NCBI GenBank assembly: GCA_004211975.1
Contig: RXIK01000113.1
Location: 1 to 61,295, forward strand
DNA length: 61,295 bases
Source: Methanosarcinales archaeon
Lineage (GTDB): Archaea; Halobacteriota; Methanosarcinia; Methanosarcinales; Methanogasteraceae
Reading direction: 5' to 3'
The translations under genes and the position numbers were made by a program. Numbering within the stretch: the first letter of the stretch is position 1; each line of letters starts with the position of its first letter. Positions 292 to 40,750 of the stretch are shown piece by piece. Below the pieces are notes generated by a model that worked only from the letters and a program-made list of their open reading frames with translations, did not search any database and was not told the origin of the DNA.

Positions 292-912
292 TCAATCTCT
301 CCTGCGTGCAAAATATATCGCTGCAAGGATGCCAACCACAAATAGAGCCCCGAACCCCGGTGTTTCGAGTTCGGTTTCGGTTTCGTGCTCAGCCACATCA
401 GTCGGAGCAAGGGTCTGAGCCCCGGACGCAGTCTCTGTTACCGCAATTACCTCACTTTCAACGCCATCCCAACTTGCAGGCATCGCATCCGCCATGCTAC
501 TCACGAGCAATCCATCAGAGACCTCCATTGAACATGCACCCGGAACGATCGTCTCAAAGTGTATCGTTGCAAGCGACCCCGATCCGGACACACCGTCAAT
601 ACCAGGGAGATTGAAGAGCACCTGAACATTGTCCTCAGCAACCACCCAGTCATCTATGGGTACTGCGGTTCCACCAACATCACCATCATCAACACCTGTG
701 ACGCTCACGTCATCCGGATTAAAATAGAGAGTAAATTGCCCTGAATCAAGATCTACTACATTTTCCACATCTATCATAACGCTGAAATCACCCTCCGCAA
801 GTTCGGGGGAGTTAATAGTGACACTTGCCTGATCTGCCACCACAAGAGTTGCAGATAGTAGAAGCGTTATCAAAACTATGATAGTTATCGAAACTGTTTT
901 TGATATCATCAA
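292..912 (-). CDS. Secreted single-cohesin protein with a PGF-CTERM (archaeosortase) anchor
   Basis: N-terminal signal/TM (ITIIVLITLLLSATLVVA). Cohesin-like module (SVTINSPELAEGDFSVMIDVENVVDLDSGQFTLYFNPDDVSVTGV...GSGSLATIHFE). Acidic linker. C-terminal TPGFGALFVVGILAAIYFARRRD. Confidence 0.8.
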   Translation of the reverse strand: MMISKTVSITIIVLITLLLSATLVVADQASVTINSPELAEGDFSVMIDVENVVDLDSGQFTLYFNPDDVSVTGVDDGDVGGTAVPIDDWVVAEDNVQVLFNLPGIDGVSGSGSLATIHFETIVPGACSMEVSDGLLVSSMADAMPASWDGVESEVIAVTETASGAQTLAPTDVAEHETETELETPGFGALFVVGILAAIYFARRRD

Positions 913-3145: not shown

Positions 3146-3499
3146 CTACTTGCTTGGCACATAGATCATTCCACCATCCTGCATCTCATATATTGTTCCG
3201 ACCGTCCCGATAACATCCTCTTCGATCATCGTCTCGCTCATATTCAGTGTCTTGATCTCTTGCCCGCTCTTGACAATTACCTCCATTGTGGGCTCGCCCG
3301 GGTTTTTCACGATTGTCACATCCTGATCTGGCGTGATCAGTTCTGGCAGGTGGTATGAGGTCACAAGCGCGATAAGGAGTGCGACAGCAAAGACCATCGC
3401 TACATCGAAGAGGTTTGTAACTCCGCCCATCGGGTTTTCGCCGTATCGTTTCTTTCTGTTTCTGCCGCGGTTTCCGTTATTTCCGTTCTTCAGATACAT
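3146..3499 (-). CDS. ExbD-like single-pass partner protein (DUF2149-type)
   Basis: Basic N-terminus, one TM (NLFDVAMVFAVALLIALV), then a small beta-rich domain (VTIVKNPGEPTMEVIVKSGQEI...GTIYEMQDGGMIYVP). Overlaps the MotA/ExbB gene by 23 nt. Confidence 0.6.
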   Translation of the reverse strand: MYLKNGNNGNRGRNRKKRYGENPMGGVTNLFDVAMVFAVALLIALVTSYHLPELITPDQDVTIVKNPGEPTMEVIVKSGQEIKTLNMSETMIEEDVIGTVGTIYEMQDGGMIYVPSK

Positions 3500-4136
3500 T
3501 AGAATCTCCGTATATCATGTCGCAAATATATCTCATGTCGTCGATATCCTGATCGTACCACCTGCTCCGCACAATCGAGATCGCGTACGATATGCCGCCC
3601 ACAAGAAGACCGAGCACGGTTGTTCCGAACGCGATGATCATGTTGTTTGCAAGAAGCTCAACGTCTCCTGCCGCAAGCCCTGCAAGCGCGGGACCCATCG
3701 GGATCAGGGTTCCCATCAGCCCGAGCATCGGACCGATTCTCGAGACAAGGTTCGTCCGTTCAAGTCGTTTCGTGATGAGCGTGTCATACTCATGAAGCAG
3801 CTTCTCGATCTCCACCTGGAGGATGTCATCAACCGGGATATTGCGAAGATCACTTATGAATGCGTACACAAACGCTCCGGACATTGAACCCCTGATCAGG
3901 TCGAGCGCATCACCGAAGTTACCGTCATTTGACAGTTCTCTCGCTGTTCTGACCTTTGTCAGGTCCCTTGTCCGCTTTAGCCGCATGTAATGCTCATAAC
4001 CAAACGTTCCGCTCTCTATGATCAGGTATGTAACGAGTATCAGCAGTGCAAGTATCACCGGATACAAAAGCAGCGTGGATATCGTGTATACCGCTTCCTG
4101 AAGCGCTATCGGTAGATTCAGAATACTTATTGTCAT
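3477..4136 (-). CDS. MotA/TolQ/ExbB-family proton channel protein
   Basis: N-terminal TM plus a C-terminal helix pair with the family signature (RIGPMLGLMGTLIPMGPALAGLAAGD...MIIAFGTTVLGLLVGGISY). ATG overlaps the stop of the upstream giant gene (ATGA at 4133-4136). Confidence 0.85.
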   Translation of the reverse strand: MTISILNLPIALQEAVYTISTLLLYPVILALLILVTYLIIESGTFGYEHYMRLKRTRDLTKVRTARELSNDGNFGDALDLIRGSMSGAFVYAFISDLRNIPVDDILQVEIEKLLHEYDTLITKRLERTNLVSRIGPMLGLMGTLIPMGPALAGLAAGDVELLANNMIIAFGTTVLGLLVGGISYAISIVRSRWYDQDIDDMRYICDMIYGDSNVSEERK

Positions 4137-10843: not shown

Positions 10844-10961
10844 CAATCATACCTCAACAATCAGATCATTATGATTCTAAACAAATCTACCTTATGTTAA
10901 ATGTTATGAGTGTGTCTGTGCTTCTGACATGTCCATCCGTCTAACTGGTGCATCGATAGCT

Positions 10962-12206
10962 TCACATAACCGCAATTGCAATGATTGCGACAACCGCAAT
11001 AACAACGATTCCAACAATTGCGGCGAGTGACTTTTTCCAATTCCTCTCTTCCACTGGTGCGACCGCTTCGGCGTCAGTCCTGCCTTCAGTCTCGCGTCCG
11101 GCAGATTCCGGATGCGCTGTGGTGAGTGAGATCACTTTGACAATCCCGCCCATGATTGAGGCTATCACGACTATGACGATCCCTGCGATCGGTGTTAGAA
11201 TCGGTGATGGAGTCGATTTTGGTTCTGTTCGAAACTTTGTTACATGCCCTGGTTCCTGTGTGGCTACCACTGCTGGCGTTGCAACTTCGAGAGGTGTTGT
11301 TGCAGGCGTTACTGCAGGTGCTGCCCTCGGAGCTGGTGTCGGTGTTGGTGGCGATGTCGGTGTTGGTGTTACACCCCACCCGGGTGGGTATGTTCCGTCT
11401 CTGCTACTACGTCTGTGTGAGACGCTCGTCGTGGTCGTGGTGCTCGACAGTGCGGCGATGATTGTGAAAGCGGCGTCACTCACACCCTCACCGGCATTCC
11501 CTGCCGCATCATGCGCAATCACCTTCACCAGGCACGTGCCCGATGCAGTGTTCGGAATTGTCCAGTTATACGCCCCGCTGTCTGATATTCCGGTTGTTAT
11601 CATCTGGTATGTGGCTCCACCATCCGTGGAGTACGCGATATCAACAGAGGTCACGCCAACGTTGTCAGTTGCGGTCCATCTAATCTCCTCGGCTGTTCCT
11701 GCCTTCCAGTTCTCCCCGCCATCCGGCGAGTTGACCGTAACTACGGGTTCTGAGACCGCGAAATTCCGGACGGTGTGTGGAATCGGTTTTACCTCAGGAG
11801 AGTCCTCTACGATCTCAATTACGCCAATACCTATCTCGCCCTGATCATCATCATTGATTTGTAGCTTGAGGATGGCATAATCAATCAGACCACTTAGACC
11901 CGGGTTGTTTATCTGAAATGCTTGTGTGCGTAATACATTTTTGCCGTCACCCAGGTCGACACGGTTGTAATCAAAATAATCAAAGCTCTCACCAACCACA
12001 TCCGTTATATCAACGAGATTGGAATCGTACGTAAGATTCAGATCACACACGCCGACGTTTGTGACGTTGTCGATTGTGAGTATGTACTCGCCATCGTCGT
12101 TTCTGACGTATATCTCGCAGCAGTACGCGGGAATTGCGAGCAGCAGTATGACAAGAACAATCTTTGCCAGCTTGAGGGTCGCCTTCTTCGGTCTCTTTAG
12201 TTTCAT
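10962..12206 (-). CDS. Membrane-anchored cohesin protein (cohesin, Ig-like, Pro/Thr linker, two C-terminal TM helices)
   Basis: Signal peptide. Cohesin-like module (CDLNLTYDSNLVDITDV..). Ig-like domain (VTVNSPDGGENWKAGTAEEIRWTATD..). PT-rich linker (TPTPTSPPTPTPAP). Two hydrophobic helices at the C-terminus. Confidence 0.75.
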   Translation of the reverse strand: MKLKRPKKATLKLAKIVLVILLLAIPAYCCEIYVRNDDGEYILTIDNVTNVGVCDLNLTYDSNLVDITDVVGESFDYFDYNRVDLGDGKNVLRTQAFQINNPGLSGLIDYAILKLQINDDDQGEIGIGVIEIVEDSPEVKPIPHTVRNFAVSEPVVTVNSPDGGENWKAGTAEEIRWTATDNVGVTSVDIAYSTDGGATYQMITTGISDSGAYNWTIPNTASGTCLVKVIAHDAAGNAGEGVSDAAFTIIAALSSTTTTTSVSHRRSSRDGTYPPGWGVTPTPTSPPTPTPAPRAAPAVTPATTPLEVATPAVVATQEPGHVTKFRTEPKSTPSPILTPIAGIVIVVIASIMGGIVKVISLTTAHPESAGRETEGRTDAEAVAPVEERNWKKSLAAIVGIVVIAVVAIIAIAVM

Positions 12207-12364
12207 GGTCTCATCCTATCTTATCTGTGGGGCAGGGTTACTCAGGGATATCCGGACAATTCATCATAGATATTCAATTTAATCTAACAAATCTCCACCA
12301 CACTTAAGCATTTCGGTTTGGTGAAGACCAAGTTAAATAGAAAAAAGGGTGATCTGCCATCACC

Positions 12365-14083
12365 CTATTTTAGTTCCTCGTATCCACTGATTCCAACAAC
12401 ATGCTTTGCCAGATACATGGCATCGGCTGATGTTATCTTGTCGTCGCCATTGACATCCGCGGTCTCTTTGTATATCTTCTCGAATCCTTCAATTCCAAGC
12501 ACATGTTTCGCAAGATACATGGCGTCATGAATATCCACCGCGCAATCAGAATTGACATCGCCGTTTAAGAATGTGATATACGTCCCGTTCCTCACCGTAT
12601 ACAGCATCCTCTTACCCTCGGGAGTCGCATCCTTAAACGTCGTGACACTCAGATTCAATGGGGATATGCTGCCACCGTCGCCGACAGGTTCGAGCGTAAC
12701 ATTCGCAAAAATTATGTCTCCAGGGAGTCCCGGGTTATTTGCCTGGTATGCGCCGATGCGCACGAATCCCTCGCCTATGTGCTCGAGATTTGCCACGTTA
12801 TCATCGAAATTACCGCCTGTTACGTCTGTGACATTCACAACCGATGAGTTGAACGTGAGCGTGATATCACACGCACCGATATTTACGGCGTTCTCGATTG
12901 TAATTGGCAGAGTCACGACACCGGTACCATTGCCGATGCTGATTATGGCTTCACCGGTTCCGATAACCTGAATCGCCTCGGTGTTGTTGTAGACTAACGA
13001 GTTCACGCCATCATCCATCGTGATATTCACCCGATACGTGCCACCCCTGACAATGACTCCATCATCGTCCGTGCCAGTCCACACTCGCGGGTTCGGATCC
13101 GTTACCTCGGTACATATAAACAGCGATTTCACAACGCCACCATCTACGTTCTCGATTCTGATCGAAGCCTCCACAGCCTCTGAGAACTCGACATCGATTG
13201 TGGTGTAGTCCTCAACCCAGTCTCCATCCGGCGAGATCGTGGTGTTTGAAATCGTGTATGTGGTGAGGTATGGTTCAGGATCTGTGGGATCAGTTGCCAA
13301 CTGAACGATTACGCTCACAGCCACTGTCTTTGTTCCGCCGTTTGAACTCACAGTTACCGTTCCGCTGTGAGCACCACCGGATAGTCCGGTCGTATCAGCA
13401 GTCACCTTGACAGTACCTGCGTCTGACCCGCTCGCCGGGCTAACAGCAATCCACGCCTGGTCGCTCGTGACGTTCCAGTCCAGCGTTCCTGCACCGGAGT
13501 TTGTTATCTCAAATGTGAATGTCTGTGTCTGTGTATTGCCCGTCCGAATACTTCCGAAGTCATGCGATGCCGGGTTGACGCCGAGAATCGGACCTGTAGC
13601 CTCACCAGTGACCGTGAATACGCCATCAATGTCGGTTCGCGGTTCTATCTGAGCGTTGGCTGTATCGATCAGAGCACCGGTTGTAATGTCAAGTACGCTC
13701 TCTTCTCCCGGATTACCATCCACCCTCAATGTGACGGTTGCAAGCAATACGTCCGCACCGGTTACATCCGCATCTATGCTGAGAGGACCTATAACCACCT
13801 TGCCGGTTTTGTTGCTGGCTATAACGCTCATATCCATCCCGAACTCAGGATTGGTCTCTTCGCCAACCACCATAACGATATCAGGATCATATCTAAGGGT
13901 TACCGTGAACCCCCGCAGATGTTCCACATCATGGCATCTGATCTCGGCAGTGGTCGTGAGACCGGGATCTGCCGAAGCGTTCGCGATAATTATTGTTGGT
14001 TCTGCAGATGCGGCAGGGATCATGCCGAGCAGGCATATCACAATTCCTATTGTTGCAAGCAACATTTTATGTATATTATTCAT
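12365..14083 (-). CDS. Adaptor scaffoldin: cohesin, Ig/BACON-like, FlgD-Ig-like, cohesin, dockerin
   Basis: Start moved to MNNIHKMLLATIG (signal peptide), which removes the overlap with 14100..15185. Two cohesin modules. C-terminal duplicated calcium-loop dockerin (GDVNSDCAVDIHDAMYLAKHVLG / ADVNGDDKITSADAMYLAKHVVG). Confidence 0.8.
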   Translation of the reverse strand: MNNIHKMLLATIGIVICLLGMIPAASAEPTIIIANASADPGLTTTAEIRCHDVEHLRGFTVTLRYDPDIVMVVGEETNPEFGMDMSVIASNKTGKVVIGPLSIDADVTGADVLLATVTLRVDGNPGEESVLDITTGALIDTANAQIEPRTDIDGVFTVTGEATGPILGVNPASHDFGSIRTGNTQTQTFTFEITNSGAGTLDWNVTSDQAWIAVSPASGSDAGTVKVTADTTGLSGGAHSGTVTVSSNGGTKTVAVSVIVQLATDPTDPEPYLTTYTISNTTISPDGDWVEDYTTIDVEFSEAVEASIRIENVDGGVVKSLFICTEVTDPNPRVWTGTDDDGVIVRGGTYRVNITMDDGVNSLVYNNTEAIQVIGTGEAIISIGNGTGVVTLPITIENAVNIGACDITLTFNSSVVNVTDVTGGNFDDNVANLEHIGEGFVRIGAYQANNPGLPGDIIFANVTLEPVGDGGSISPLNLSVTTFKDATPEGKRMLYTVRNGTYITFLNGDVNSDCAVDIHDAMYLAKHVLGIEGFEKIYKETADVNGDDKITSADAMYLAKHVVGISGYEELK

Positions 14084-14099
14084 TTTTTGTGTCACCTCG

Positions 14100-15185
14100 T
14101 TATACTCCGGGATAGAGATCCGGATAGTCGGGATCGCCATACGAATACTTGATTAGATGCATCACGTCCTGAAAAGCGCCTGCCGTACCTATTGTACCAT
14201 CACCATTGCAATCGGGATTGTCAAATATCTCAGGATAGTCAGGATCACCATACGAATACTTGATTAGATGTATCGCGTCCTGAAAAGCGCCTGCCGTACC
14301 TGTTATACCATCGCCGTTGATGTCCCCGCTCATTGGGTCTCCAGACTCTGCACCGTAATTCTCAAACGGCTCCATCAGAGGATAATGGTATTTTTCTATA
14401 CTACCACCGAATGGTACATACCGCTCAGCTCCAATACCATCACCTTTGTCCTCACCGACATAGTCATCCCAGTAGTTGCCCATGTAACTGGTGTAGGTAG
14501 TATCCTTATACGTATAGGTCATCTGAACCGGGGAACTCCATTCGTTCCGGGTGCTATAGGCGAAGACGTGGCCCTTGGCATCGTGATTGTTGATGAAGTT
14601 ATTCAGATATACAATGTTGTTAGAACTATCCTTATCATAGAGACTTAACTTATCCATGTTAGAGATCGTGTTCCGCCTCAGGATGCTTCCGGTACTGCCA
14701 CTAGTAAACCAGACTCCTTCGTCGCATCGATCAATGAGATTGTCCTCAATGATCGTTCCTTCTATATCTTCCGGGAGGTTGTCGGTTCCGACAGATACTC
14801 CGAACGCGGTACTGCCGGTGTGGGTGATCGTGAAGCCCCGCAGGACTACGCCTGAAGCCAGGATGTGGACCGCATCGTTACTGTGATGCGCAACTCCGGA
14901 AACACCTCCGGCATCGATGACGGGCTGACCAACACCCTCCAGTGTCAGTCTCTTCTCGACTTTGAGCCTTTCGTTGTAGGTTCCGGCATAGACCTTGATT
15001 GTGTCCCCGTCGCCGGACTCGTTTATCGCATCACCGATTCTCGTATAGTCGGCATCCGGGTACTCAGCCCCATTATCGTCCACATGCCATGTCTCTGCTG
15101 CCACTGGCAGCGCAATCACAAGCATAGCGACAATAGCTATGCCTGCGAGCGTTATAATTCGTTTCGTTCGAGTTTTTCTGTTCAT
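14100..15185 (-). CDS. Secreted NosD-like right-handed beta-helix protein with an atypical duplicated dockerin-like tail
   Basis: Signal peptide. AETWHVDD..GDTIKVYAGTYNERLKV..LTLEG; beta-helix rungs; YMGNYWDDYVGEDKGDGIG..YHYPL. Tail is two copies of (D/C)(I)NGDG(I/T)(T/I)GTAGAFQD.(I/M)HLIKYSYGDPDYP. Confidence 0.75.
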   Translation of the reverse strand: MNRKTRTKRIITLAGIAIVAMLVIALPVAAETWHVDDNGAEYPDADYTRIGDAINESGDGDTIKVYAGTYNERLKVEKRLTLEGVGQPVIDAGGVSGVAHHSNDAVHILASGVVLRGFTITHTGSTAFGVSVGTDNLPEDIEGTIIEDNLIDRCDEGVWFTSGSTGSILRRNTISNMDKLSLYDKDSSNNIVYLNNFINNHDAKGHVFAYSTRNEWSSPVQMTYTYKDTTYTSYMGNYWDDYVGEDKGDGIGAERYVPFGGSIEKYHYPLMEPFENYGAESGDPMSGDINGDGITGTAGAFQDAIHLIKYSYGDPDYPEIFDNPDCNGDGTIGTAGAFQDVMHLIKYSYGDPDYPDLYPGV

Positions 15186-15217
15186 TGTTACCTCCTCTAT
15201 GTTCTTCTAAGTTTTCG

Positions 15218-16159
15218 TTACCGATTGGCTGCCTCATAAAGGATCATCAGTGCGTCCAGTGAGGTGACCTGATCGTCTCTATTCACATCGGCTATCTGCG
15301 AGTATTCACCCTCAACTGCCATCTGTAAGGTGAGAAGGGCGTCTTCCGATGTGATTTCACAATCTCCGTTGAGATCTCCGGGCAGACTTCCAATGGTGAT
15401 ATTGAATAGACGGGATCCACCATTTCGAACGTCCTCAGGAGTCACGGTGTATTTTGCACTCGCTGACCCGTCGCCGTGCAGGGCACTGAATCGCATCGTT
15501 TCGCAACAATCGATGTCAGTGCCTGCGGTGAGCAGGAGCCAGTAGTAATTGCAACCATCATTGGTTGTTGCCTGCCACTGCACACCGCTCTGATTGGACA
15601 TGCTCACAATGGGACCATTACACTCGCTCCCGTCTCCGTGGAACACAAAACCTGATACTAAAAACGGCTTTGGTGCCGCAGAACCCGCAACAACAAATGC
15701 ACCATCGATATCGGTTCGCGGTTCTATCTGATCGTTGGCTGTATCGATCAGAGCATCGGTCGTGATGTTCAGTACGCCCACGTCTCCAGGATTACCATCC
15801 GCCCTCAATGTGACGGTTGCAAGCCAGACGTCATCGCCAGTTACATCCGCATCTATGCTGAGAGGACCCAGAACCACATCGCCGGTTTTGTTGTTGGATA
15901 TAACGCTCATATCCATCCCGAACTCAGGATTGGTCTCTTCGCCAACCACCATGACGACATCGGGATCGTATCCAAGGGTTATCGTGAACCCCAGCAGATG
16001 TTCCACATTATGGCATCTGATCTCGGCAGTGGTCGTGAGACCGGGGTCTGCCGAAGCGTTCGCGATAATTATTGTTGGTTCTGCAGATGCGGCAGGGAGC
16101 GTGCCAGGCAGGCATACCGCAATTACAACTGTTACAAACAATACTTGACATATTTTCAA
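15218..16159 (-). CDS. Cohesin, NYY beta-sandwich, dockerin protein
   Basis: TTG start with AGGAGGT 7 nt upstream. Signal peptide. Cohesin about 88-90% nt-identical to the N-terminal cohesin of 12365..14083. PFLVSGFVF..CNGP..NYYWLLL module. Dockerin GDLNGDCEITSEDALLTLQM../ADVNRDDQVTSLDALMIL. Confidence 0.8.
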   Translation of the reverse strand: MKICQVLFVTVVIAVCLPGTLPAASAEPTIIIANASADPGLTTTAEIRCHNVEHLLGFTITLGYDPDVVMVVGEETNPEFGMDMSVISNNKTGDVVLGPLSIDADVTGDDVWLATVTLRADGNPGDVGVLNITTDALIDTANDQIEPRTDIDGAFVVAGSAAPKPFLVSGFVFHGDGSECNGPIVSMSNQSGVQWQATTNDGCNYYWLLLTAGTDIDCCETMRFSALHGDGSASAKYTVTPEDVRNGGSRLFNITIGSLPGDLNGDCEITSEDALLTLQMAVEGEYSQIADVNRDDQVTSLDALMILYEAANR

Positions 16160-16186
16160 TTGTTTTACCTCCTTTCTGTTATTTCA

Positions 16187-16855
16187 TCACATCAGTTTCT
16201 CGTACCCGCTAATTCCGATCAGATGCTTCGCGAGATACATTGCATCGTGCGACGTGACCTCGCCGTCGCCATTCACATCCGCGGCTTCCGGGACGATCTC
16301 CTCAAATCCGGTAACTCCAAGCAGATGCTGCATCAGATAAATGGCATCATGCATGTCCACCCTGCGATCGGAATCAGCATCGCCGTTTAAGAATATGGTA
16401 CACGTCCCGTCCCCGGTGACCTGCGGCACTATCTCGTAGCCCGGGTCAATGAGTGTTGCGTCCGCAACACAGAGAGTGCTCACAGAACCCGCATCTCCGG
16501 TTGCAGTCAGCTTGAGGTTGGCAGGGACTGCATCGCCGCTCTGCCCGGTTATGTTGATTGCGTTCATGCGCACCCATCCGGACTCGTTATTGATCATGTG
16601 TGTGAGAAGCTCCATATTTCCTGAGATAACATCGGTTACATGGACGACCGAAGCATCGTACGTGACATTGATGTCGCATCCGCCCAGTCCTGTTGCGTTT
16701 GTTATTTGAACCGGTACCGTCACCGTGCCGCCGGATTCAAGAGCGCAGTTAACAATCTCCACGCAGACGGTTGTGGCTGTGGCTCCGGCAGGTGCCAGCG
16801 AGATCAGGAGCAGCATGACAACACCCGGAACTACCAGTTGTCTCCATTCGGTCAT
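16187..16855 (-). CDS. Minimal cohesin-dockerin protein
   Basis: Signal peptide. One cohesin (GGCDINVTYDASVVHVTDV). Dockerin (GDADSDRRVDMHDAIYLMQHLLG / ADVNGDGEVTSHDAMYLAKHLIG). Confidence 0.8.
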   Translation of the reverse strand: MTEWRQLVVPGVVMLLLISLAPAGATATTVCVEIVNCALESGGTVTVPVQITNATGLGGCDINVTYDASVVHVTDVISGNMELLTHMINNESGWVRMNAINITGQSGDAVPANLKLTATGDAGSVSTLCVADATLIDPGYEIVPQVTGDGTCTIFLNGDADSDRRVDMHDAIYLMQHLLGVTGFEEIVPEAADVNGDGEVTSHDAMYLAKHLIGISGYEKLM

Positions 16856-16884
16856 GAAACCAAAAAATGAAGGAGGATGACTGA

Positions 16885-17928
16885 CTATGGCGCATCCTCC
16901 ATGCCTGCCGCATACCTTGCTATGTACAGCACATCAAGCAGGTTCATCATGCCATCGCCCGCAGGGCTGCCGGACGTGCCAACAACATCTCCAACAAGTA
17001 GTATATCCTGCGAACCGGGATCCGGCTCAGCACCTGTGATATAGCCGGAGATGCGCATCGCATCCTGCATGTCAATCCTGTTGTCCCGGCAAACATCACC
17101 CCGTCTCAGAACGGTCAGCGTGATTGCAGCCGTGGTGTTGCTGTTTCCTGCGCCGTCGGTCGCGTTGATCGTCAACTGGTGGGTCTGGTTAACACCCATG
17201 GTTGCACTCGTGGAAACCTTCCAGATATCAGTTCCGGAAACGTGTTCCATCAGTTGGACCGGGGATCCGCCAACAGGCGAGAGATCGATTGTGACGCCTG
17301 AAACGCCACTGTCATCATCATTCACCATAACGTTTATCAGTGTTACGTTGGTTCCTTGCGATCTGGCTCTGTCATTGTCGTTTAATATCGTATCCCGACT
17401 TGCGCCTGTTACTGCAATCATCGGTGGCTCCATGTCAAGCAGTTTCTCGACTGTGAGCGTCCCGTTTGTTACAGTGTAGTTGATCGAATCATAGTTCACA
17501 TCAACGAGCTGATCGACTATGATGTCAAGCGGGCTTGTGTCGCCGTTGCTTCCCACAGCGGTCAGGTTGATGTATGCAGCGACCACGTCGTTATCCGGTC
17601 CGGTTACATCGATTGTGTTTGCATGCATACAGCCGGTTCCGTTGTTGATCGTGTATCTAAGAAGCGTCATGTCACCCGGGGTGATGTTCACTACATGGAC
17701 AACCGAGGCGTCATACCTGATTCTGATGTCGCACCCACCCAGGTCTGTTACGTTGCTCACCATGATCGGCAGAGTTGCGTTTTCTCCCGGTGCAATAGTG
17801 AGATCATCAATTGTTACTGTTGCGTTTTTAGCGGTGGCGGTAGCGGACGTGCCAAACACGACAAGCATGACAAGCATGCATAGCGCAATTCCGGCTGCTA
17901 CAGACCGTTTTTTCTGTATATCTCTCAT
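16885..17928 (-). CDS. Cohesin, Ig-like, variant dockerin protein
   Basis: Signal peptide. Cohesin (GGCDIRIRYDASVVHVVNI). Ig-like module EPPMIAVTGASRDTILNDNDRAR...TINATDGAGNSN. Variant dockerin RGDVCRDNRIDMQDAMRISGYITG ... MMNLLDVLYIARYAAG. Confidence 0.75.
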   Translation of the reverse strand: MRDIQKKRSVAAGIALCMLVMLVVFGTSATATAKNATVTIDDLTIAPGENATLPIMVSNVTDLGGCDIRIRYDASVVHVVNITPGDMTLLRYTINNGTGCMHANTIDVTGPDNDVVAAYINLTAVGSNGDTSPLDIIVDQLVDVNYDSINYTVTNGTLTVEKLLDMEPPMIAVTGASRDTILNDNDRARSQGTNVTLINVMVNDDDSGVSGVTIDLSPVGGSPVQLMEHVSGTDIWKVSTSATMGVNQTHQLTINATDGAGNSNTTAAITLTVLRRGDVCRDNRIDMQDAMRISGYITGAEPDPGSQDILLVGDVVGTSGSPAGDGMMNLLDVLYIARYAAGMEDAP

Positions 17929-17986
17929 TGTAATCGTCTCCTGTCTTCTACAGTTTCAAAAAAATAAGGTGATTATGGTAATCACC

Positions 17987-19702
17987 TCATTTTAGTTCCT
18001 CATATCCGCTGATTCCAACGACATGCTTCGCAAGATACATGGCATCGGATGATTTTATCTCGCCGTCGCCATTGACATCTGCAGCCTCTTCATCGATCGT
18101 CGTAAATCCGGGCTTCTTGAGCACGTACTTTGCAAGATACATGGCATCGTGTATGTCCACTATACCATTGCCATTGACATCACCGTTCATGGATACGCCA
18201 CCGGTGTACGTTCCGTTCCGGACGATATACGGCATCTGGTTGCCCACAGGGGTTGCATCCTTGAATGTCACAACACTCAGGTTCAGCGAACAGTTGCCAC
18301 CGTTGACAGGTTCAAGCACAACATTTGCAAAGGTGATCTCTCCGGAGAGTCCCTGGTTACCGCTCTGGTACGTGCCGATACGCACCAATCCCTCGTGTGC
18401 GTGCTCGAGATTCGCAACGGTTATGTCCATGTCCCCGCCGGTCACCCCGGTTACATTCACAACAGCAGGATCGAATGTGAGCGTTATGTCACATGCACCA
18501 ACGTCCACACCGTTCTTGATTCCAATCGGCAGGGTCACGTTTCCGACACCATCACCGATGCTGATTACGGCGACACTCGTGTCTGCCACGATGATCGATC
18601 TCGTGTTATCGAAGACCACCGGGTTCACGCCGTCATCCATCGTTACGTTCACATAATACGTGCCGTAAGCGACAGTATTATCGCCGTCGTCTGTTCCGTC
18701 CCATATCTTTGGGTTTGGGTCCTTCACACTTGCTGAGGTGTACAACGTCTTGATAACACCGGTTGCGTTCTCAATATTGATAGCAGCCGCCACAGATTCT
18801 GAGAACTTGACATCAATCTCGGTGTCATCCATCACACCATCTCCGTTAGGGGAGATTGTGGAGTTGTAGATCGTGTATGTAACGAGAGTGGGGGAAGGAT
18901 TACCCTGTGCGAACGTTATGTCAAAGTTAAATATCCCTCCCGCAGCGATATCGTCTGCTGCGATGGTGCGATCGGTTGTACTGGAATCAGAACCGCATGT
19001 CACGTTGAATTGCAGCGCATCGCCGGAGTTAATATCTGCTGGCATGCCGAGCACGAGCATGTAGTAATCGCTGCCAGCAGTAGTCGTAGCATCCCAGCTT
19101 ACACCTGTGTTCGTGTTCGTTATCTTAACCGACGGATCACTGCAGGGGGTGCCATCCGAGCCTGTCACACATCCATCGATCACAAACGGCAATTGAGGTT
19201 CTGTTCCCCCGTTTCCACCGCTGACTGTGATCGACCCATTTGTCACCTCAAACAGAATCGGTGTTGTCTTTGACGTATCCCTCAGTTTGGTAACATCCAG
19301 ACCGAGCGGTGTTGAGCCGGTCCCGACCGCCTCGAACGTTACACTGACAAATTCAATGTCGCCGCTCACGCCACCGATATTCCACGCAGAAATACTCACG
19401 ACTCCGGCAGTGTTATCCGCATTATGCGCAGTAACAGTAGAGTTTGTATTACCGGTAACACCAGTAACATGCACCACTGCCGGGTTGTACGTGATGCTCA
19501 TCGTTCCGGTGCCGTAGTTCCGGATATCCTTGAGCATGACCTCCGCGGTCACAGTTCCGCCGGCATCACACGTAAGGTCGCCGATTGATACTGTAGTTGC
19601 GCTGGCAGTGGAACTGCTGCCACTACCAGCGATCATCGGCACAAGCATCATCACAACGAATATTGTGATTACCTGTGCCATACTTTGTTTCATTCGTTTC
19701 AT
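17987..19702 (-). CDS. Adaptor scaffoldin: cohesin, NYY beta-sandwich, FlgD-Ig-like, cohesin, dockerin
   Basis: Signal peptide. Two cohesins. LPFVIDGCVTGSDGTPC..TNTNTGVSWDATT..DYYMLVL module. C-terminal half parallels 12365..14083. Dockerin GDVNGNGIVDIHDAMYLAKYVL / ADVNGDGEIKSSDAMYLAKHVVG. Confidence 0.8.
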   Translation of the reverse strand: MKRMKQSMAQVITIFVVMMLVPMIAGSGSSSTASATTVSIGDLTCDAGGTVTAEVMLKDIRNYGTGTMSITYNPAVVHVTGVTGNTNSTVTAHNADNTAGVVSISAWNIGGVSGDIEFVSVTFEAVGTGSTPLGLDVTKLRDTSKTTPILFEVTNGSITVSGGNGGTEPQLPFVIDGCVTGSDGTPCSDPSVKITNTNTGVSWDATTTAGSDYYMLVLGMPADINSGDALQFNVTCGSDSSTTDRTIAADDIAAGGIFNFDITFAQGNPSPTLVTYTIYNSTISPNGDGVMDDTEIDVKFSESVAAAINIENATGVIKTLYTSASVKDPNPKIWDGTDDGDNTVAYGTYYVNVTMDDGVNPVVFDNTRSIIVADTSVAVISIGDGVGNVTLPIGIKNGVDVGACDITLTFDPAVVNVTGVTGGDMDITVANLEHAHEGLVRIGTYQSGNQGLSGEITFANVVLEPVNGGNCSLNLSVVTFKDATPVGNQMPYIVRNGTYTGGVSMNGDVNGNGIVDIHDAMYLAKYVLKKPGFTTIDEEAADVNGDGEIKSSDAMYLAKHVVGISGYEELK

Positions 19703-19736
19703 TCTATAGTACCTCCATTCTGTTTTATTGAAGTGT

Positions 19737-20657
19737 TTATGTTGGGTGGGTGGACTCCCGAAGGATCATCAACACATCCAGCGCTGTGATCCAGCCATCC
19801 TCATTCACATCGGCTATCTGCGAGTATTCGCCCCGAACCACCATCTGTAGAGCAATCGCAGCATCTTCCGATGTGATCTTGTAATCTCCATTGAGGTCTC
19901 CCTGTATCTGCCCGATTGTGATGTTCAGGCTGAATCCGACGCTGTTGATCTCGTCAAGAGATATGCCATGACCTATTTCTGTTGACCTGCTTCCATCTGT
20001 AGCATTGAATCTCAGCGTTTCGCCGAGATCAACGTCATTGTGTAAGATGAGCGAGATTCTGTAGTGGTTATTGTCAGAATCGGTCTCTGCCTGCCACTCT
20101 GCCCCCCTGTCCGGATTGGTTACACCGACAAACGGACCGTTGCAGACACTGCCGTTTGGGTAGAAGATGTATCCAGTCACCGCAAATGATTGTGGCGTAC
20201 AGTGCCCTCCTGTTGTGAACAATCCGTTCACAGTCGCAGCAGGGATCGGGGAGAAACTGTTGTCGTTTAATTTGACGATCATGAGGTTGAGAGGGCTCTG
20301 GCAGGGTCCGACAGACCTTAGCGTGACGTTTGCAAAGAGTACGTCACCGCTCACGCCGCCCATGTTCCACGCGGATATTATGACGATTCCGGCGGTGTTG
20401 TTGATGCTGGGCGTCACAGTTGACTGAGGCGTGCCTGCAACACCTGTGACATGAACCACCGCAGGATTATAGGTGATCTTGATCGTTCCGGTGCCGTAAT
20501 CCGCGACATCCGATAGCACCACTGGCACGGTCACATCTTCGTGCAGTCCGCAGGTGACGTCACCAATTGAGACCGATGCCGCCTCTGCTGTGCAGACGTG
20601 AGCCACTGCCAGAACAGATGTGATGATCAGTGCTGCAATCAACAATCTTATCGACAT
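19737..20657 (-). CDS. Cohesin, NYY beta-sandwich, dockerin protein
   Basis: Start moved to MSIRLLIAALII (signal peptide), directly abutting the upstream stop at 20660. Cohesin (YGTGTIKITYNPAVVHVTGV). SFAVTGYIF..CNGPFVGVTNPDRGAEWQAET..NHYRISL module. Dockerin GDLNGDYKITSEDAAIALQM / ADVNEDGWITALDVLMIL. Confidence 0.8.
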   Translation of the reverse strand: MSIRLLIAALIITSVLAVAHVCTAEAASVSIGDVTCGLHEDVTVPVVLSDVADYGTGTIKITYNPAVVHVTGVAGTPQSTVTPSINNTAGIVIISAWNMGGVSGDVLFANVTLRSVGPCQSPLNLMIVKLNDNSFSPIPAATVNGLFTTGGHCTPQSFAVTGYIFYPNGSVCNGPFVGVTNPDRGAEWQAETDSDNNHYRISLILHNDVDLGETLRFNATDGSRSTEIGHGISLDEINSVGFSLNITIGQIQGDLNGDYKITSEDAAIALQMVVRGEYSQIADVNEDGWITALDVLMILRESTHPT

Positions 20658-20659
20658 AT

Positions 20660-21436
20660 TCACCTGCCACCTCCACGCTTTGTATTCCATGTCAGGATCA
20701 GGTACCCGAGTAGAATTGATAGTGAGATTGATACGATCCCGGATCCTGGAGCCACCTGTCCGGAAGCCGTCTGTAATTGTGCGTGTGCTGTATCAGCAGG
20801 TTCTGCGTGATCCTCCTCCGGCTGCGCCGAATCAGGCGATTCATCCGGTTCGGATCCTGACTCCGCACCCATCACCACATCAGGGAGCGGTGGTGTGAGC
20901 TGTGAGGGGGATTGCCCGCCAGAACCCTGTTCCGGTGTTGATGTGGGTGTTGCATCTCCGGAACCACCGGTTATCATGAATGTTCCATCACTCACCCCGG
21001 CTTCAATCGGCTTCATTGATGTGTTTACCATCTTGACGAGATCAAGGGTGAGTGTGCTCGAGCCCCCCTCACTTCCGACCGCTGTCAGTGTCACGTCTGC
21101 AAATACGATATCCCCGCTCACACCAGCAAGATTCCATGCGGATACACTGGCGATTCCGGCGGTGTTGTCGATGTCGGGTGGGGTTACTGTCGAATCGTCG
21201 CTATTCGAGATTCCTGTGATGTGAACCGCCCCGGGATCATACGTGATGTTTATCGTGCCGGCACCGTAGTTCGCGATGCTGGCGATTCTGATCGGCACGG
21301 TGACCTCGCCCCCGGTTGCGGCTGTACAGTCATCGATTGCTACAGTCACAGCCGCAACAGAGACCTGCACGGCTCCGACAGCCAGCATCAGCGCCAGAGA
21401 TATGATCATTACGGTTTTATGAGTCATCTGTTCCAT
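20660..21436 (-). CDS. Membrane-anchored cohesin protein (variant PGF-CTERM-like tail)
   Basis: ATG at 21436 (MEQMTHKTVMIISLALML..). One cohesin (YGAGTINITYDPGAVHITGI). Ser/Pro/acidic linker. C-terminal APGSGIVSISLSILLGYLILTWNTKRGGGR. Confidence 0.75.
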   Translation of the reverse strand: MEQMTHKTVMIISLALMLAVGAVQVSVAAVTVAIDDCTAATGGEVTVPIRIASIANYGAGTINITYDPGAVHITGISNSDDSTVTPPDIDNTAGIASVSAWNLAGVSGDIVFADVTLTAVGSEGGSSTLTLDLVKMVNTSMKPIEAGVSDGTFMITGGSGDATPTSTPEQGSGGQSPSQLTPPLPDVVMGAESGSEPDESPDSAQPEEDHAEPADTAHAQLQTASGQVAPGSGIVSISLSILLGYLILTWNTKRGGGR

Positions 21437-21510
21437 GTCATCCTCGTTTGCAAAAAGAATAGCCGATGGCACCCTTCCCGGATGCCATCATGCCATCACG
21501 CAACCACACT

Positions 21511-23751
21511 TCAGGGTGCAGACTCCAGCCCGACACTGTACCGGGCGATGTAGTATGCATCCACGATATCGACGCCGTCCCATGAGTCAGCCGGGATGGT
21601 GCCGGCCACGAACTCATCCGGTTCCGGCTCAAGACCGACTGTGTACCGTGCGATATAGTATGCGTCCACAATGTCCACAGCAACATCACTATCGCGCACC
21701 ACATCGCCGCGTATCAGAACCGTTAGCGGGATGCAGACGCCGGTGTTTGAGTTGCCACTCGTGTCAGTCGCATTAACAACGAGGCAGTGGGTCTCGTTCA
21801 CACCTGTTACCGCATTCACCTCTATCTCCCAGATCGTTTCGCTGCCATGAGTCATCTCTGCCGCGGAATCGCCGCCAATCGGTGTGAGATCGATCGTGAC
21901 AGACGCAATCCCTGCGGTATCAGTCACTGAAACGCTCAGCGTGGAGAGATTCGTTCCGGGAACGCGTGCTCTTCCGTTGTCGTTTAATATAACGTCAGGA
22001 GACGACTGCGGACTTCCCACGACTGGTGGCTCGCTCTCGCTCACCGTGAATGACCCGTCATCGTCGTAGACCGGAATATCGTTGTACGACGTATCTTTGA
22101 GCGTTGTTACGGTCAGATCGAGCGTGGTTGTGCTCCCGCTTGGTCCGCGAGCTTCAAGCGTCACGTTTGCGATGGCAACGTCACCTGACACGCCGTCTGT
22201 GTTCCATGCAGAGAATGTGACAACCCCGGATGGGTTGTTGATGTTCACGCTTGATACTGTGGAGTCAGGAGTGTTATCAACGCTCGTGACCCACGCAACC
22301 GATGAGTCGTACTCGAGTTTGATTGTTGTCGTGCCGTAGTTTGTGATGCCGTAGACCGTTATCGGTGCGACGATACTCGAGTCGCTGGTCACGACGTAGT
22401 CGCCGATATCGACTCTCAGCGCAGAAGTGGCTACACTCACACTCTTCTTCTCAGATCTCGTGTAGTCTGCCCATGTTCCCTTATCCGCATGGATCTGATG
22501 CGTCCCGGGCGATCCCAGTGACATTGTAAGCGTACCATCAGGACCTGTTGAGTCGTGTGGTGCACCATCAACATAGACCTCTGCGGCATCAACAGGCTCG
22601 AACAATCCGGAAGTGCCGTTGTACGCTGTGACGGTTGCTGTGAATGTCTCACCGAGCTCAACATTGGTCTTATTAAGCTCTATTGCAAGCGGGGGTGCTG
22701 TCCATGCTCCGAAGTACCAGAGCACCTCATCAGAATCAGCGAGCGTGTACTCAGCGGCGCCAACCCATGGTGAAACGTAGTTCACACGGTACATCCAGCC
22801 ATCCCCGCCGATCGCAGGCTCGCTGTTGATCTCAGAGACGTACAGTCCGTAAACCGCGTTCTCAGCCACATATCCAAATCCGCCTGATTTGTCTGCGCAG
22901 TCGAGTGCTCCGAGTGCTGTTGGCTCATTTAAGTAGTGGACAGAACCATCGGATGCTGTGATCGTTGAGTTACTGAACGTGACGTCTCCGGTCCAGACCG
23001 TATCAGTCGTACCCTCTATTCTCACGTTTGCTGTGACTGTGAGTTTTTCGAGGACGTTCACAGTCTGCAGGAGATCATTGTTCGTCTCATCCGACTCAAC
23101 TATGACGCCAGATGCGTCTGCCGTTACGGTGAGTGTTGCACTGCCTGTTGCGGCTGGCGTCCAGAGGAGCATGACGGTGGTGTTCTCTCCGGCTGCAAGC
23201 GACGCGATACTCACTGTGTCAACAGTCGTACTACCAACATCAAGCGTCACATCGAAACTTCCGGTATTGTCCGTTCCGGCATTCTCGACTGTTGCGCTGA
23301 TCGGGTTGATCACATCGTTGCGCAGATTGGTTGGCGCAGTGACTGTGGTTACGATTAGATCAATATCTGCGGTGGCTGGTTCAAGCGTTATATCCTCGCT
23401 GAACCCTCCGGTATCAATCTCAGCCAATGCTATCGTATGTTCCACCATCATCGACTCTGAGCATCCTGACGCATCGAATCGCAATACGTCGTCTATGCTC
23501 ACGTTCTCACTGTCGAGCACGAGCAGATAGCTGTTCGATGTTGCTAAAGTCACAGCGTTCCAGATCAGGCCGGTGTTCGTGTTCGTTACTTGCACCACTG
23601 CACCGTTGCATGGAGCACCAGTCGAATCAACTACATATCCATTGATCACAAACGGTGTCGATGGTTCTGCCATCGCTGGCGCAGCAAGTATGAACAGTGC
23701 TACAGCCAGCAGTGCGCCCATTATGTTGTTAGTTTGTATATTATATTGCAT
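21511..23751 (-). CDS. Multidomain dockerin protein: NYY beta-sandwich, CARDB, DUF4430 (transcobalamin-like C-terminal domain), Ig, cohesin, Ig, variant dockerin
   Basis: AGGAG 7 nt upstream of the ATG. Signal peptide. DUF4430 hallmark ..GGDGWMYRVNYVSPWVGAAEYTLADSDEVLWYFG. Cohesin (YGTTTIKLEYDSSVAWVTSV). Dockerin RGDVVRDSDVAVDIVDAYYIARYTVG / WDGVDIVDAYYIARYSVG. Confidence 0.8.
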   Translation of the reverse strand: MQYNIQTNNIMGALLAVALFILAAPAMAEPSTPFVINGYVVDSTGAPCNGAVVQVTNTNTGLIWNAVTLATSNSYLLVLDSENVSIDDVLRFDASGCSESMMVEHTIALAEIDTGGFSEDITLEPATADIDLIVTTVTAPTNLRNDVINPISATVENAGTDNTGSFDVTLDVGSTTVDTVSIASLAAGENTTVMLLWTPAATGSATLTVTADASGVIVESDETNNDLLQTVNVLEKLTVTANVRIEGTTDTVWTGDVTFSNSTITASDGSVHYLNEPTALGALDCADKSGGFGYVAENAVYGLYVSEINSEPAIGGDGWMYRVNYVSPWVGAAEYTLADSDEVLWYFGAWTAPPLAIELNKTNVELGETFTATVTAYNGTSGLFEPVDAAEVYVDGAPHDSTGPDGTLTMSLGSPGTHQIHADKGTWADYTRSEKKSVSVATSALRVDIGDYVVTSDSSIVAPITVYGITNYGTTTIKLEYDSSVAWVTSVDNTPDSTVSSVNINNPSGVVTFSAWNTDGVSGDVAIANVTLEARGPSGSTTTLDLTVTTLKDTSYNDIPVYDDDGSFTVSESEPPVVGSPQSSPDVILNDNGRARVPGTNLSTLSVSVTDTAGIASVTIDLTPIGGDSAAEMTHGSETIWEIEVNAVTGVNETHCLVVNATDTSGNSNTGVCIPLTVLIRGDVVRDSDVAVDIVDAYYIARYTVGLEPEPDEFVAGTIPADSWDGVDIVDAYYIARYSVGLESAP

Positions 23752-23780: not shown

Positions 23781-24905
23781 TCACCCACAGGTGGCAGTGG
23801 TCAGCGTGACCGACCCTGCATAGTTCCCGACAGGTGTTCCATACGGCACGTTCAGCCTGAAATCCACGTTTTCAAGGCTCGATGCGCCTGCTTCAATGTT
23901 CACATCGAAGCATCGCGCCACACCAAGATCCAAGTAACCGAGTGCCGCGACCCGGGCATCTATATAATCCCTGGTGATCGTATTACTGCCAGAGGTCATG
24001 TCTGACCCGGCTATGTTCACGTCGACCTCCACATTGCCCGTGTTCCGGACAGTCGGACTACCCGTTGTCCCCATATCCGCATCTCCCGGTATGGTGCTGT
24101 TCTCGCCAGGACTGACTAATCCGAATGCTATCATATCGGCATCAAGACTTACCGCGTTGCAACTGGTATAGTTGAACGTTGACGAACCGGTACCTGATAA
24201 CCCTCCTGCATCCTCTGCCACGACCGTTACCGTATACTCAGTCGGTGCGTCATAGAACTGCATGTCAAACGTTCCGGCATACGTTGCTGTGTTCCCGATC
24301 CCGCTGCCGGATTGATACAAGAGCGTGACAAGACCTGGACCGCCATGAGCCGGATCCGGATTGATATCTGTTATGGTCACAGTGCTGATATCGTCAAATC
24401 CGCCGGGATCACTCACAACAGCAGTTACCGTAACGGTCTTTGCACCGCCCGGATATGGATCGATCTGAACTCCAGGTGTCACACCGTCATCATCCTGAGT
24501 TATTGTGATGCTGTCCACAGTAGGTGGTGCTGCTTGCGCAGAAAGCATCACATTGAAGCCGGAGAGTCCGCCACTGCCGATATCATCCTGAATCACCGGA
24601 TGGATTGTGATGTTGTAGTAGGTTCCGTTGGTGGCGTTACACTCAAGCACATCGCCAACACTCACATCAGCGGTGTCGAGGATGAGATGGTAATAGTTAT
24701 AGCCACTATGCGTCTCAGCCTGCCATGTCCCACTGGTATCCCGGTTGGTTACATCAACAGTGGGATTATCGCATTCGCTTCCATCCGCGTTAAAGACCCA
24801 GCCAGAGATTACAAATGGCGTTTCCGCACCGTCCGCACTCACCTGCGATGCACCCGGAACCAGCAGAAAGATCGCAATCAGTGCCAGCAATCCTTTCGCA
24901 CTCAT
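23781..24905 (-). CDS. Secreted NYY beta-sandwich, cadherin/Ig-like, C-terminal beta-domain protein (fibre/adhesin-type)
   Basis: Signal peptide. ETPFVISGWVFNADGSEC..NYYHLIL. Ig-like modules. C-terminal domain ending FRLNVPYGTPVGNYAGSVTLTT. ATG overlaps the upstream stop (ATGA at 24902-24905). Confidence 0.7.
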   Translation of the reverse strand: MSAKGLLALIAIFLLVPGASQVSADGAETPFVISGWVFNADGSECDNPTVDVTNRDTSGTWQAETHSGYNYYHLILDTADVSVGDVLECNATNGTYYNITIHPVIQDDIGSGGLSGFNVMLSAQAAPPTVDSITITQDDDGVTPGVQIDPYPGGAKTVTVTAVVSDPGGFDDISTVTITDINPDPAHGGPGLVTLLYQSGSGIGNTATYAGTFDMQFYDAPTEYTVTVVAEDAGGLSGTGSSTFNYTSCNAVSLDADMIAFGLVSPGENSTIPGDADMGTTGSPTVRNTGNVEVDVNIAGSDMTSGSNTITRDYIDARVAALGYLDLGVARCFDVNIEAGASSLENVDFRLNVPYGTPVGNYAGSVTLTTATCG

Positions 24906-32410: not shown

Positions 32411-32445
32411 CTTGTTTACCTCCTAAAAAATAAAAAAGAATTATG

Positions 32446-40713: not shown

Positions 40714-40750
40714 CTGATTTACCTCCTAAAAAATAAAAAAGGATTATGTT

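Follow-up and report, generated by a model that had tools for sequence, protein, structure and literature searches.

Large repertoires of cohesin and dockerin modules were described in anaerobic methanotrophic archaea (ANME). For ANME-2a and ANME-1 genomes, Timmers 2017 gave counts of 52-80 cohesin and 44-149 dockerin domains, with suggested roles in adhesion (PMC5244752), and the large ANME repertoires include dockerin-bearing proteins with up to five cohesins (PMC5244752; Chadwick 2022, PMC9012536). According to Murali et al., both ANME-2c and its partner Seep-SRB2 express cohesin/dockerin proteins at high levels (PMC10553843). Here we analyse a cohesin-dockerin locus of a Methanosarcinales archaeon on contig RXIK01000113.1 (assembly GCA_004211975.1); the whole stretch of 61,295 nt is referred to as the window. 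The locus resembles the ANME repertoires in its lineage neighbourhood, in its dockerin-bearing and multi-cohesin, scaffoldin-like proteins, in the absence of cellulases and in the proposed role in adhesion or surface display. The published work gives domain counts and general trends, but not locus organisation, module classes or wiring. Because these repertoires were published in 2017 and 2022, the original prediction, made from the sequence alone, overstated the novelty of a multi-specificity scaffoldin locus (PMC5244752, PMC9012536, PMC10553843); analogous clusters also occur in Ca. Methanogaster and other metagenome-assembled genomes (MAGs). The system is already known in kind, and the literature searched yielded no characterisation of how such archaeal scaffolds are wired. 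What is new here is a compact 11-gene set, in a cluster that recurs in related genomes; it has four classes of dockerin, one of them of an insert type, and conserved pairs of anchor and adaptor genes.

By analogy, the assembly logic of the locus is most likely cellulosome-like. The cellulosome of Clostridium (Acetivibrio) thermocellum, with CipA and the SdbA/OlpB anchors, shares with it a hierarchical assembly from orthogonal types, a cohesin-X module-dockerin (Coh-X-Doc) arrangement and surface anchoring. In contrast to that system, the window contains no glycoside hydrolases or family 3 carbohydrate-binding modules (CBM3), has at most two cohesins per protein and uses PGF-type or transmembrane (TM) tails instead of S-layer homology (SLH) anchors, and most of its subunits are both socket and plug. 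The Ruminococcus flavefaciens cellulosome and the R. bromii amylosome likewise combine many module types with adaptor scaffoldins and naturally truncated dockerins (PMC12270676). The amylosome also has cohesin-plus-dockerin proteins that may self-associate, such as Amy4, which carries a cohesin and its own dockerin on one polypeptide and was proposed to self-aggregate (PMC4611034). These systems are bacterial, enzyme-loaded and sortase-anchored, whereas the cargo in the window consists of immunoglobulin-like (Ig-like), CARDB, DUF4430 and β-helix domains. The cohesin-dockerin system of A. fulgidus (2xdh) is archaeal and non-cellulolytic like the present one, and 2xdh is among the best profile and fold matches reported below; unlike our locus, it comprises a couple of modules and no multi-class, multi-gene scaffold (PMC9012536, citing Peer 2009).

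We consider it probable (about 0.7), from sequence and structure prediction, that the locus encodes a cohesin-dockerin system of non-cellulosomal type, which assembles on the surface of a Methanosarcinales archaeon that forms consortia. The dockerins of the system would plug into cohesins of the cognate class, so that the secreted proteins would self-assemble extracellularly into a branched, multi-layer scaffold rooted in the membrane. This scaffold would display Ig-like, CARDB, DUF4430, BACON and β-helix modules, which would most likely serve adhesion or matrix building in archaeal-bacterial aggregates.

The locus consists of ten adjacent minus-strand open reading frames (ORFs) at 10962-23751, tightly packed with gaps of 27-158 nt, and an eleventh cohesin gene at 292-912, 10 kb off the ten-gene cluster. 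Genes are named by their lower coordinate, and the module classes (cohesins A, B, B', G, Y, Y' and Z; dockerins D1 to D4) are those described below. All coordinates are nucleotide positions in the window.

21511..23751, minus strand: g21511, 746 aa; signal peptide, CarboxypepD_reg-like (CPDreg-like) domain, CARDB (77 bits in Pfam), DUF4430 (36 bits), Ig, cohesin Y' (22036-22434), Ig-like X module, dockerin D3 (21514-21711); the largest cargo protein, whose cohesin and dockerin were found through paralogs only.
20660..21472, minus strand: g20660, 270 aa; signal peptide, cohesin Y (20957-21361; Pfam Cohesin 36.5 bits), acidic/Pro-rich linker, anchor (20663-20755).
19737..20690, minus strand: g19737, 317 aa, likely start at 20657; cohesin Y (20205-20588; 55% identical to g17987_A), CPDreg-like domain, dockerin D2 (19740-19904; Dockerin_1 32.4 bits).
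17987..19702, minus strand: g17987, 571 aa; cohesin Y (19214-19606), CPDreg-like domain, FlgD_ig-like domain, cohesin B (18197-18577), dockerin D1 (17990-18190); Cohesin 50.9 bits (two stretches), Dockerin_1 54.1 bits; 110 homologs found.
16885..17928, minus strand: g16885, 347 aa; cohesin G (17437-17838), Ig-like X module, dockerin D3 (16888-17103).
16187..16855, minus strand: g16187, 222 aa, a minimal adaptor; cohesin G (16388-16786; 44.7 bits) joined directly to dockerin D1 (16190-16387; 47.5 bits).
15218..16159, minus strand: g15218, 313 aa; cohesin A (15674-16090; 26.8 bits), CPDreg-like domain, dockerin D2 (15221-15388; 28.3 bits).
14100..15185, minus strand: g14100, 361 aa; signal peptide, NosD/CASH right-handed β-helix (Pfam NosD 61 bits), dockerin D4 (14103-14330).
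12365..14140, minus strand: g12365, 591 aa, likely start at 14083; cohesin A (13595-14011), BACON_2 (44.6 bits), FlgD_ig-like domain, cohesin B (12575-12955), dockerin D1 (12368-12571); Cohesin 45.4 bits (two stretches), Dockerin_1 47.9 bits.
10962..12206, minus strand: g10962, 414 aa; signal peptide, cohesin B' (11751-12125), Big_7 (26.5 bits), Ser/Thr/Pro linker, two C-terminal TM helices (10965-11195).
292..912, minus strand: g292, 206 aa; signal peptide, divergent cohesin Z (463-843), PGF-CTERM-like anchor (295-363).

The overlaps between g19737 and g20660 and between g12365 and g14100 are only apparent: they disappear with internal ATG starts, read from the sequence, that stand just before hydrophobic signal segments. 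Hydropathy shows a signal-like hydrophobic N-terminus on all 11 proteins. Seven of them carry one or two cohesins and a C-terminal dockerin, three combine a cohesin with a C-terminal anchor (g20660 with Y, g10962 with B' and g292 with Z), and g14100 is the sole dockerin protein without a cohesin. ORF calls and module searches agree with the original prediction on the ten consecutive genes plus 292..912 and on the seven dual proteins, whose architecture permits chaining and branching. The contig is archaeal, with exosome subunits, a proteasome alpha subunit and LeuRS at 50-57 kb, and the closest named relatives of the source archaeon are ANME-2c and Ca. Methanogaster. In the public MAG of an uncultured marine Methanosarcinales archaeon, the cluster genes appear as EF813_063xx, annotated as hypothetical proteins.

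We counted 12 cohesins and 8 dockerins in the 11 proteins. With the Pfam Cohesin model (PF00963, gathering score 24.1 bits), eight of the 12 cohesins, distributed over six proteins, scored above threshold, and three fell below it (g19737 with 23.3, g292 with 21.3 and g10962 with 16.1 bits). The Dockerin_1 model (PF00404) recovered five of the eight dockerins above threshold, all of them D1 or D2 (28-54 bits), and gave weak scores for D3 of g16885 (16.8 bits) and D4 of g14100 (13.1 bits). The Pfam test proposed with the original prediction thus succeeded for these eight and five modules, but left three cohesins and two dockerins weak and the pair in g21511 undetected. A BLAST search within the window joined all four weak cohesins to strong paralogs at E-values of 2e-10 to 2e-26: g21511 to g19737 (44% identity, E 2e-26), g10962 to g12365_B (38%, E 4e-17) and g292 to g17987_B (31%, E 2e-10). 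Over the whole Coh-X-Doc region, g21511 is 39% identical to g16885 (E 5e-64). D3, D4 and four cohesins are assigned by this homology to paralogs.

Searched against the PDB, a profile of the 12 cohesins matched almost exclusively cohesin chains, including the A. fulgidus 2xdh (E 8e-10), and a profile of the eight dockerins matched dockerin chains (E down to 9e-12) followed by weak EF-hand proteins. A duplicated loop-helix segment is present in all eight dockerins. Hidden Markov models (HMMs) built from the modules found no further cohesin or dockerin among the 741 six-frame ORFs of the window; hence the count of 12 and 8 is exact, and the neighbouring giant surface proteins contain neither module.

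The nine-stranded β-sandwich (jelly-roll) fold of solved cohesins was checked by a model on one module, that of g16885. AlphaFold2 predicted this protein with a mean confidence (pLDDT) of 89.1 from an input of 59 homologs, and its cohesin (residues 31-164) reached 95-98. In Foldseek the cohesin superimposed on 2xdh, 1aoh, 6kge and 1g1k with TMt of 0.75-0.81 and root-mean-square deviations (rmsd) of 1.9-2.9 Å, the best being 2xdh (TMt 0.81, rmsd 2.1 Å). The best matches of the whole chain were the CipA chains of 4fl4 and 3kcp, which correspond to the CohI9-X-DocII fragment, with about 340 aligned columns. The global TM-score was only about 0.4 because the domain orientations differ; the alignment therefore indicates that the Ig-like module plus D3 of g16885 resembles an X-Doc dyad. 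D3 itself was modelled as three helices with a pLDDT of 89-96. Pfam, paralog BLAST, PDB profile searches and this model all bear out the 12 cohesin-like modules and eight dockerin-like tails that had been proposed. Sequence and profile, together with the fold of g16885, identify the modules as cohesins and dockerins, among the latter most firmly for D1 and D2; the binding between them is a prediction.

An identity matrix divides the cohesins into at least five sequence classes:

Class A: g12365_A and g15218, 83% identical.
Class B: g12365_B and g17987_B, 68% identical.
B': g10962, 27-35% identical to class B.
Class G: g16187 and g16885, 39% identical.
Class Y: g17987_A, g19737 and g20660, 48-55% identical.
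Y': g21511, 36-43% identical to class Y.
Z: g292, at most 29% identical to anything.

The earlier figure of at least three classes was too low: its third class merged G and B, and g292 and g10962 are outliers. The four dockerin classes proposed at the same time are recovered by the identity matrix, with 49-69% identity within and 18-37% between classes:

D1: g12365, g16187 and g17987, canonical loops.
D2: g15218 and g19737, canonical loops.
D3: g16885 and g21511, non-canonical loops.
D4: g14100, a 4-residue insert in both repeats.

All ten segments of D1 and D2 carry the canonical 12-residue D-x-[DN]-x-[DN]-x-x-[IV]-x-x-x-D loop. In D3 the position-3 ligand is missing from the loops, whose length is altered by inserts of 2 or 7 residues or by a deletion, and the insert form of D4 (..GDG-xTGxAGA-xQD) is found in both of its calcium-loop segments.

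D4 is rare, with about five strong representative clusters in a phmmer search of 1.84e9 protein representatives. Its carriers are β-helix proteins, a 631-aa tri-cohesin protein and a 212-aa protein; judged from these sequences, D4 is mobile between carrier proteins. Weaker relatives in the same search are C-terminal modules (E 1e-5 to 1e-3, Dockerin_1 33-42 bits) that share the ...KY.Y..P.Y..LYP tail with D4 and lack the insert. Since these relatives are bona fide Pfam dockerins with the same tail and no insert, D4 can be regarded as a derived dockerin. In the window, the D4 of g14100 matches the D1 of g17987 with an E-value of 9e-8. We also observed half-dockerins, that is, orthologs of g14100 with a single D4 repeat (P0159, P0162 and P0356), which recall the truncated dockerins reported from R. 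flavefaciens (PMC12270676).

Several modules being sub-threshold in Pfam and the D3 and D4 loops being non-canonical, one could take the modules for mere β-sandwich and helical spacers of surface-layer proteins that engage in no specific plug-socket pairing. We think this very improbable, given the ten dockerin segments with canonical loops, the invariably C-terminal position of dockerins that nevertheless move between carriers (D4 sits on three unrelated ones) and the conservation of the sequence classes across genera. Moreover, binding has been demonstrated for cohesin-dockerin pairs from archaea (cited in PMC9012536).

Three cohesin proteins had been predicted to be membrane-anchored through tails at 295-363, about 10965-11250 and about 20663-20752, and hydropathy together with the PGF motif upholds this. 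The tail of g292 is a literal PGF followed by a TM segment and RRRD, but it scores below the cutoffs of TIGR04126 (18.5 vs 24.5 bits) and of the PGF-CTERM model PF18204 (16.2 vs 18.8 bits). In g20660, PGS precedes a TM segment (residues 243-261) and KRGGGR, with no match to the PGF-CTERM models, and the C-terminal TM helices of g10962 span residues 343-361 and 396-414. Orthologous Y anchors in two of the related loci (L003 and L006) have a PGF- or SGF-CTERM tail. No archaeosortase gene was found in the window.

The cargo domains recognised by Pfam are NosD/Beta_helix in g14100, CARDB and DUF4430 in g21511, BACON_2 and FlgD_ig-like in g12365, Big_7 in g10962 and Big_13-like X modules. None of the 11 proteins matched a Pfam family of glycoside hydrolases, polysaccharide lyases, carbohydrate esterases or carbohydrate-binding modules (CBMs). 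Dockerin-borne carbohydrate-active enzymes (CAZymes) and CBMs were sought and not found, and we rejected a cellulosome in the strict sense. In a second AlphaFold2 model the β-helix of g14100 was confident, and its Foldseek neighbours include CE8 pectin methylesterases, alginate, PL6 and fucoidan lyases and phage tail fibres (TM 0.25-0.43). The locus had been described as enzyme-free; no glycoside hydrolase, lyase or esterase contradicts this in Pfam, but the claim is unproven because the nearest solved folds of the NosD/CASH β-helix are, at low TM-scores, pectin methylesterases and polysaccharide lyases, and the BACON_2 domain of g12365 is a putative glycan binder. The scaffold might accordingly be a cellulosome-like machine for polysaccharide processing, in which the β-helix dockerin protein acts as lyase or esterase, BACON binds glycans and the scaffold concentrates both on an exopolysaccharide or the capsule of a partner. 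NosD-dockerin proteins recur among the homologs (P0075, P0250 and P0262), as such a machine would have it. We nevertheless judge it unlikely: the TM-scores reflect generic β-helix similarity, zero CAZyme families were matched, and just one of the eight dockerins is attached to such a domain.

Homologs of g17987, g14100 and g16885 occur in marine metagenomes and in MAGs labelled Ca. Methanogaster (ANME-2c), ANME-2 cluster, Methanosarcinales, Methanophagales and Euryarchaeota. A scan of genome contigs with g17987 returned three loci. A sample from a Gulf of Mexico seep contains a 95%-identical fragment with the gene order of the window (L004). In Ca. Methanogaster (L001/L003) there are at least ten cohesin/dockerin genes with D1, D2 and D3. 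Besides these, multigene clusters are found in L006, L008, L010 and L011. L006 and L008 have D1, D2 and D3 and agree in their terminal gene order, L010 is a four-gene cluster with G cohesins and D3 dockerins only, and L011-L017 are D4 loci.

We computed the domain grammar over about 200 homologs. D1 nearly always follows a cohesin B directly, with no linker (B-D1, G-B-D1, Y-B-D1 and Y-Y-B-D1), G-D3 is the commonest small architecture (n=40), and some homologs have up to 4-5 cohesins. The G-D1 architecture of g16187 is unusual in this set, with one other G-D1 protein vs 23 G-B-D1 proteins of about 340 aa. While L006 and L008 show the order [G-D3][G-B-D1][B' anchor], in the window a block [A-D2][β-helix-D4][A-..-B-D1] separates the G-D1 gene from the B' anchor; recombination may accordingly have split an ancestral G-B-D1 gene.

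Three gene pairs are conserved across divergent loci. In the first, a D2 gene comes after a gene for a Y cohesin on a PGF-type anchor; besides the window (g20660→g19737), this arrangement is found in L006, L008 and, two times, L003. In the second, a B' double-TM anchor such as g10962 comes after a B-D1 gene, as seen in the window (g12365→g10962), L005, L006, L008 and L017. In the third, a D4 gene is followed by an A-cohesin gene; this holds in eight of eight D4 loci, with three different D4 carriers, and cohesin A is absent from six loci without D4. From this synteny we tentatively derive the wiring D2→Y, D1→B/B', D3→G and D4→A, each pair of which is, taken by itself, at best an even bet. In this scheme g19737 and g15218 would dock through D2 on the anchor g20660. 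Through D1, g12365, g17987 and g16187 would dock on the anchor g10962 and on each other's B cohesins. D3 would attach g16885 and g21511 to g16187 and g16885, and D4 the β-helix protein g14100 to g12365 and g15218. Every dockerin of the window would then have a partner, the network would be rooted in g20660 and g10962, and the β-helix protein and the CARDB/DUF4430 protein would lie at its tips. Because several adaptors carry the target class of their own dockerin (Y-D2, B-D1 and G-D3), head-to-tail extension of chains would also be possible; for a cohesin together with its own dockerin on one protein, Amy4 of R. bromii provides a precedent (PMC4611034). Solving the wiring by self-avoidance, each dockerin avoiding its own cohesins, failed, as single polypeptides are known in which Y is combined with D1, with D2 or with D3.

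A number of observations weigh against the assembly system as we propose it. At the level of the modules, the cohesin and D3 dockerin of g21511 have no Pfam match even at E<=1, and six of the 16 dockerin segments (those of D3 and D4) deviate from the 12-residue D-x-[DN]-x-D...D calcium loop. In the model of g14100, the D4 tail shows two helices at a pLDDT of 45-65, too low to confirm the D4 fold structurally. As to the wiring, the pairing of D3 with G is weak in the Methanogaster locus, where D3 occurs on Y-rich proteins and there is a single G-like module of 29% identity. Gene adjacency could stem from a history of tandem duplication instead of partnership, and phylogenetic independence of the loci is not given. 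Other parts of the genome probably encode many of the partner dockerins and cohesins. Finally, ANME-2c and GoM-Arc1 were both present in the source study of a related sample, and the MAG may belong to ANME-2c, to GoM-Arc1 or to a further lineage of Methanosarcinales.

Several close homologs, at 40-60% identity, also appear in MAGs that bear bacterial labels (Thermodesulfobacteriota, Ca. Aerophobetes, Phycisphaerae and Patescibacteria). These entries are either mis-binned archaeal contigs or the result of an archaeon-to-bacterium transfer of cohesin/dockerin genes, as has been speculated (PMC10553843). They bear on the idea of an inter-species handshake, in which the modules would pair chiefly with dockerins and cohesins of the syntrophic sulfate-reducing bacterium and not with each other. 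Cohesin/dockerin proteins are conserved and highly expressed in both ANME-2c and Seep-SRB2, for which a role in partner sensing has been suggested (PMC10553843), and some homologs of g17987 and g16885 belong to these bacterial entries. However, these bacterial labels could result from faulty binning, the locus by itself supplies matching numbers of classes, and the conserved anchor-adaptor gene pairs favour partners encoded in cis. We therefore regard the handshake as quite unlikely and prefer an assembly among the proteins of the locus.

In a more elaborate form, which we consider doubtful, the proposed assembly system would comprise three orthogonal, self-propagating polymers (Y/D2, B/D1 and G/D3), each primed by its own membrane anchor, cross-linked by hybrid adaptors and capped by D4 delivering the β-helix to A. 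If true, this would amount to a compact genetic code for extracellular matrix or fibres between archaeal and bacterial cells, and viruses might exploit the code; compare the B-D1 adaptor beside a β-helix protein on L002 (ENA ERZ23498480 scaffold_68, 62 kb). On this contig, at 8623-11023, P0082 combines a cohesin B with D1, directly follows a NosD/β-helix protein and is 54-57% identical to the B-D1 cassette of the window. The contig looks viral, since its genes are packed on one strand and encode a major head protein (phrog_1650, E 4e-8) besides members of two other PHROG families, and may represent a virus that borrows the plug-socket system of its host for attachment. Scans of IMG/VR with P0082 and with a B-D1 alignment found no relatives, so the viral lead rests on a single contig.

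The cluster is embedded in further surface-protein genes. A CPDreg-like β-sandwich of about 95 aa (PF..xG.V...G..C....V.V.N...) occurs in nine proteins of the window between 4133 and 40713, namely in four cohesin-dockerin proteins (g15218, g17987, g19737 and g21511) and in five large neighbours without cohesin or dockerin (4133-10846, 23781-24905, 28889-32410, 34637-36931 and 37069-40713). This shared domain ties the whole minus-strand block at 4-48 kb together as one surface-protein island. Other features of the window are:

3477-4136, minus strand: a channel protein of the MotA/TolQ/ExbB family, whose gene overlaps the stop of a 2237-aa CARDB/PQQ surface protein.
3146-3499, minus strand: a DUF2149 protein, following the channel gene.
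28889-34254 and 37069-42577, minus strand: two paralogous gene pairs with near-identical N-termini and C-terminal segments, each consisting of a NosD-CPDreg-CARDB-PQQ β-propeller protein (1173 and 1214 aa) and then a β-propeller protein (602 and 608 aa).
60133-61254, minus strand: a WD40-repeat protein with at least five nearly identical 42-aa repeats, GHTSWV.AVAVTPDG.HAISGS.DNTLKVWDIESGEEIQTLT.

The channel protein and the DUF2149 protein may act as an accessory pair that energises the giant surface protein or assists its secretion. The paralogous pairs suggest a recent segmental duplication of about 8 kb, and the very high identity of the WD40 repeats suggests a recent expansion or a risk of assembly collapse.

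ANME and related alkane-oxidising archaea live only in tight consortia, whose cells stick together and organise a conductive extracellular space. Cohesin/dockerin proteins have been candidates for this role since 2017. The window offers a small, self-contained set of 12 cohesins by 8 dockerins with explicit and falsifiable pairing predictions. If these pairings are true, they would provide new orthogonal cohesin-dockerin pairs for protein engineering, including non-canonical loop variants, and an assembly map of an archaeal extracellular scaffold.

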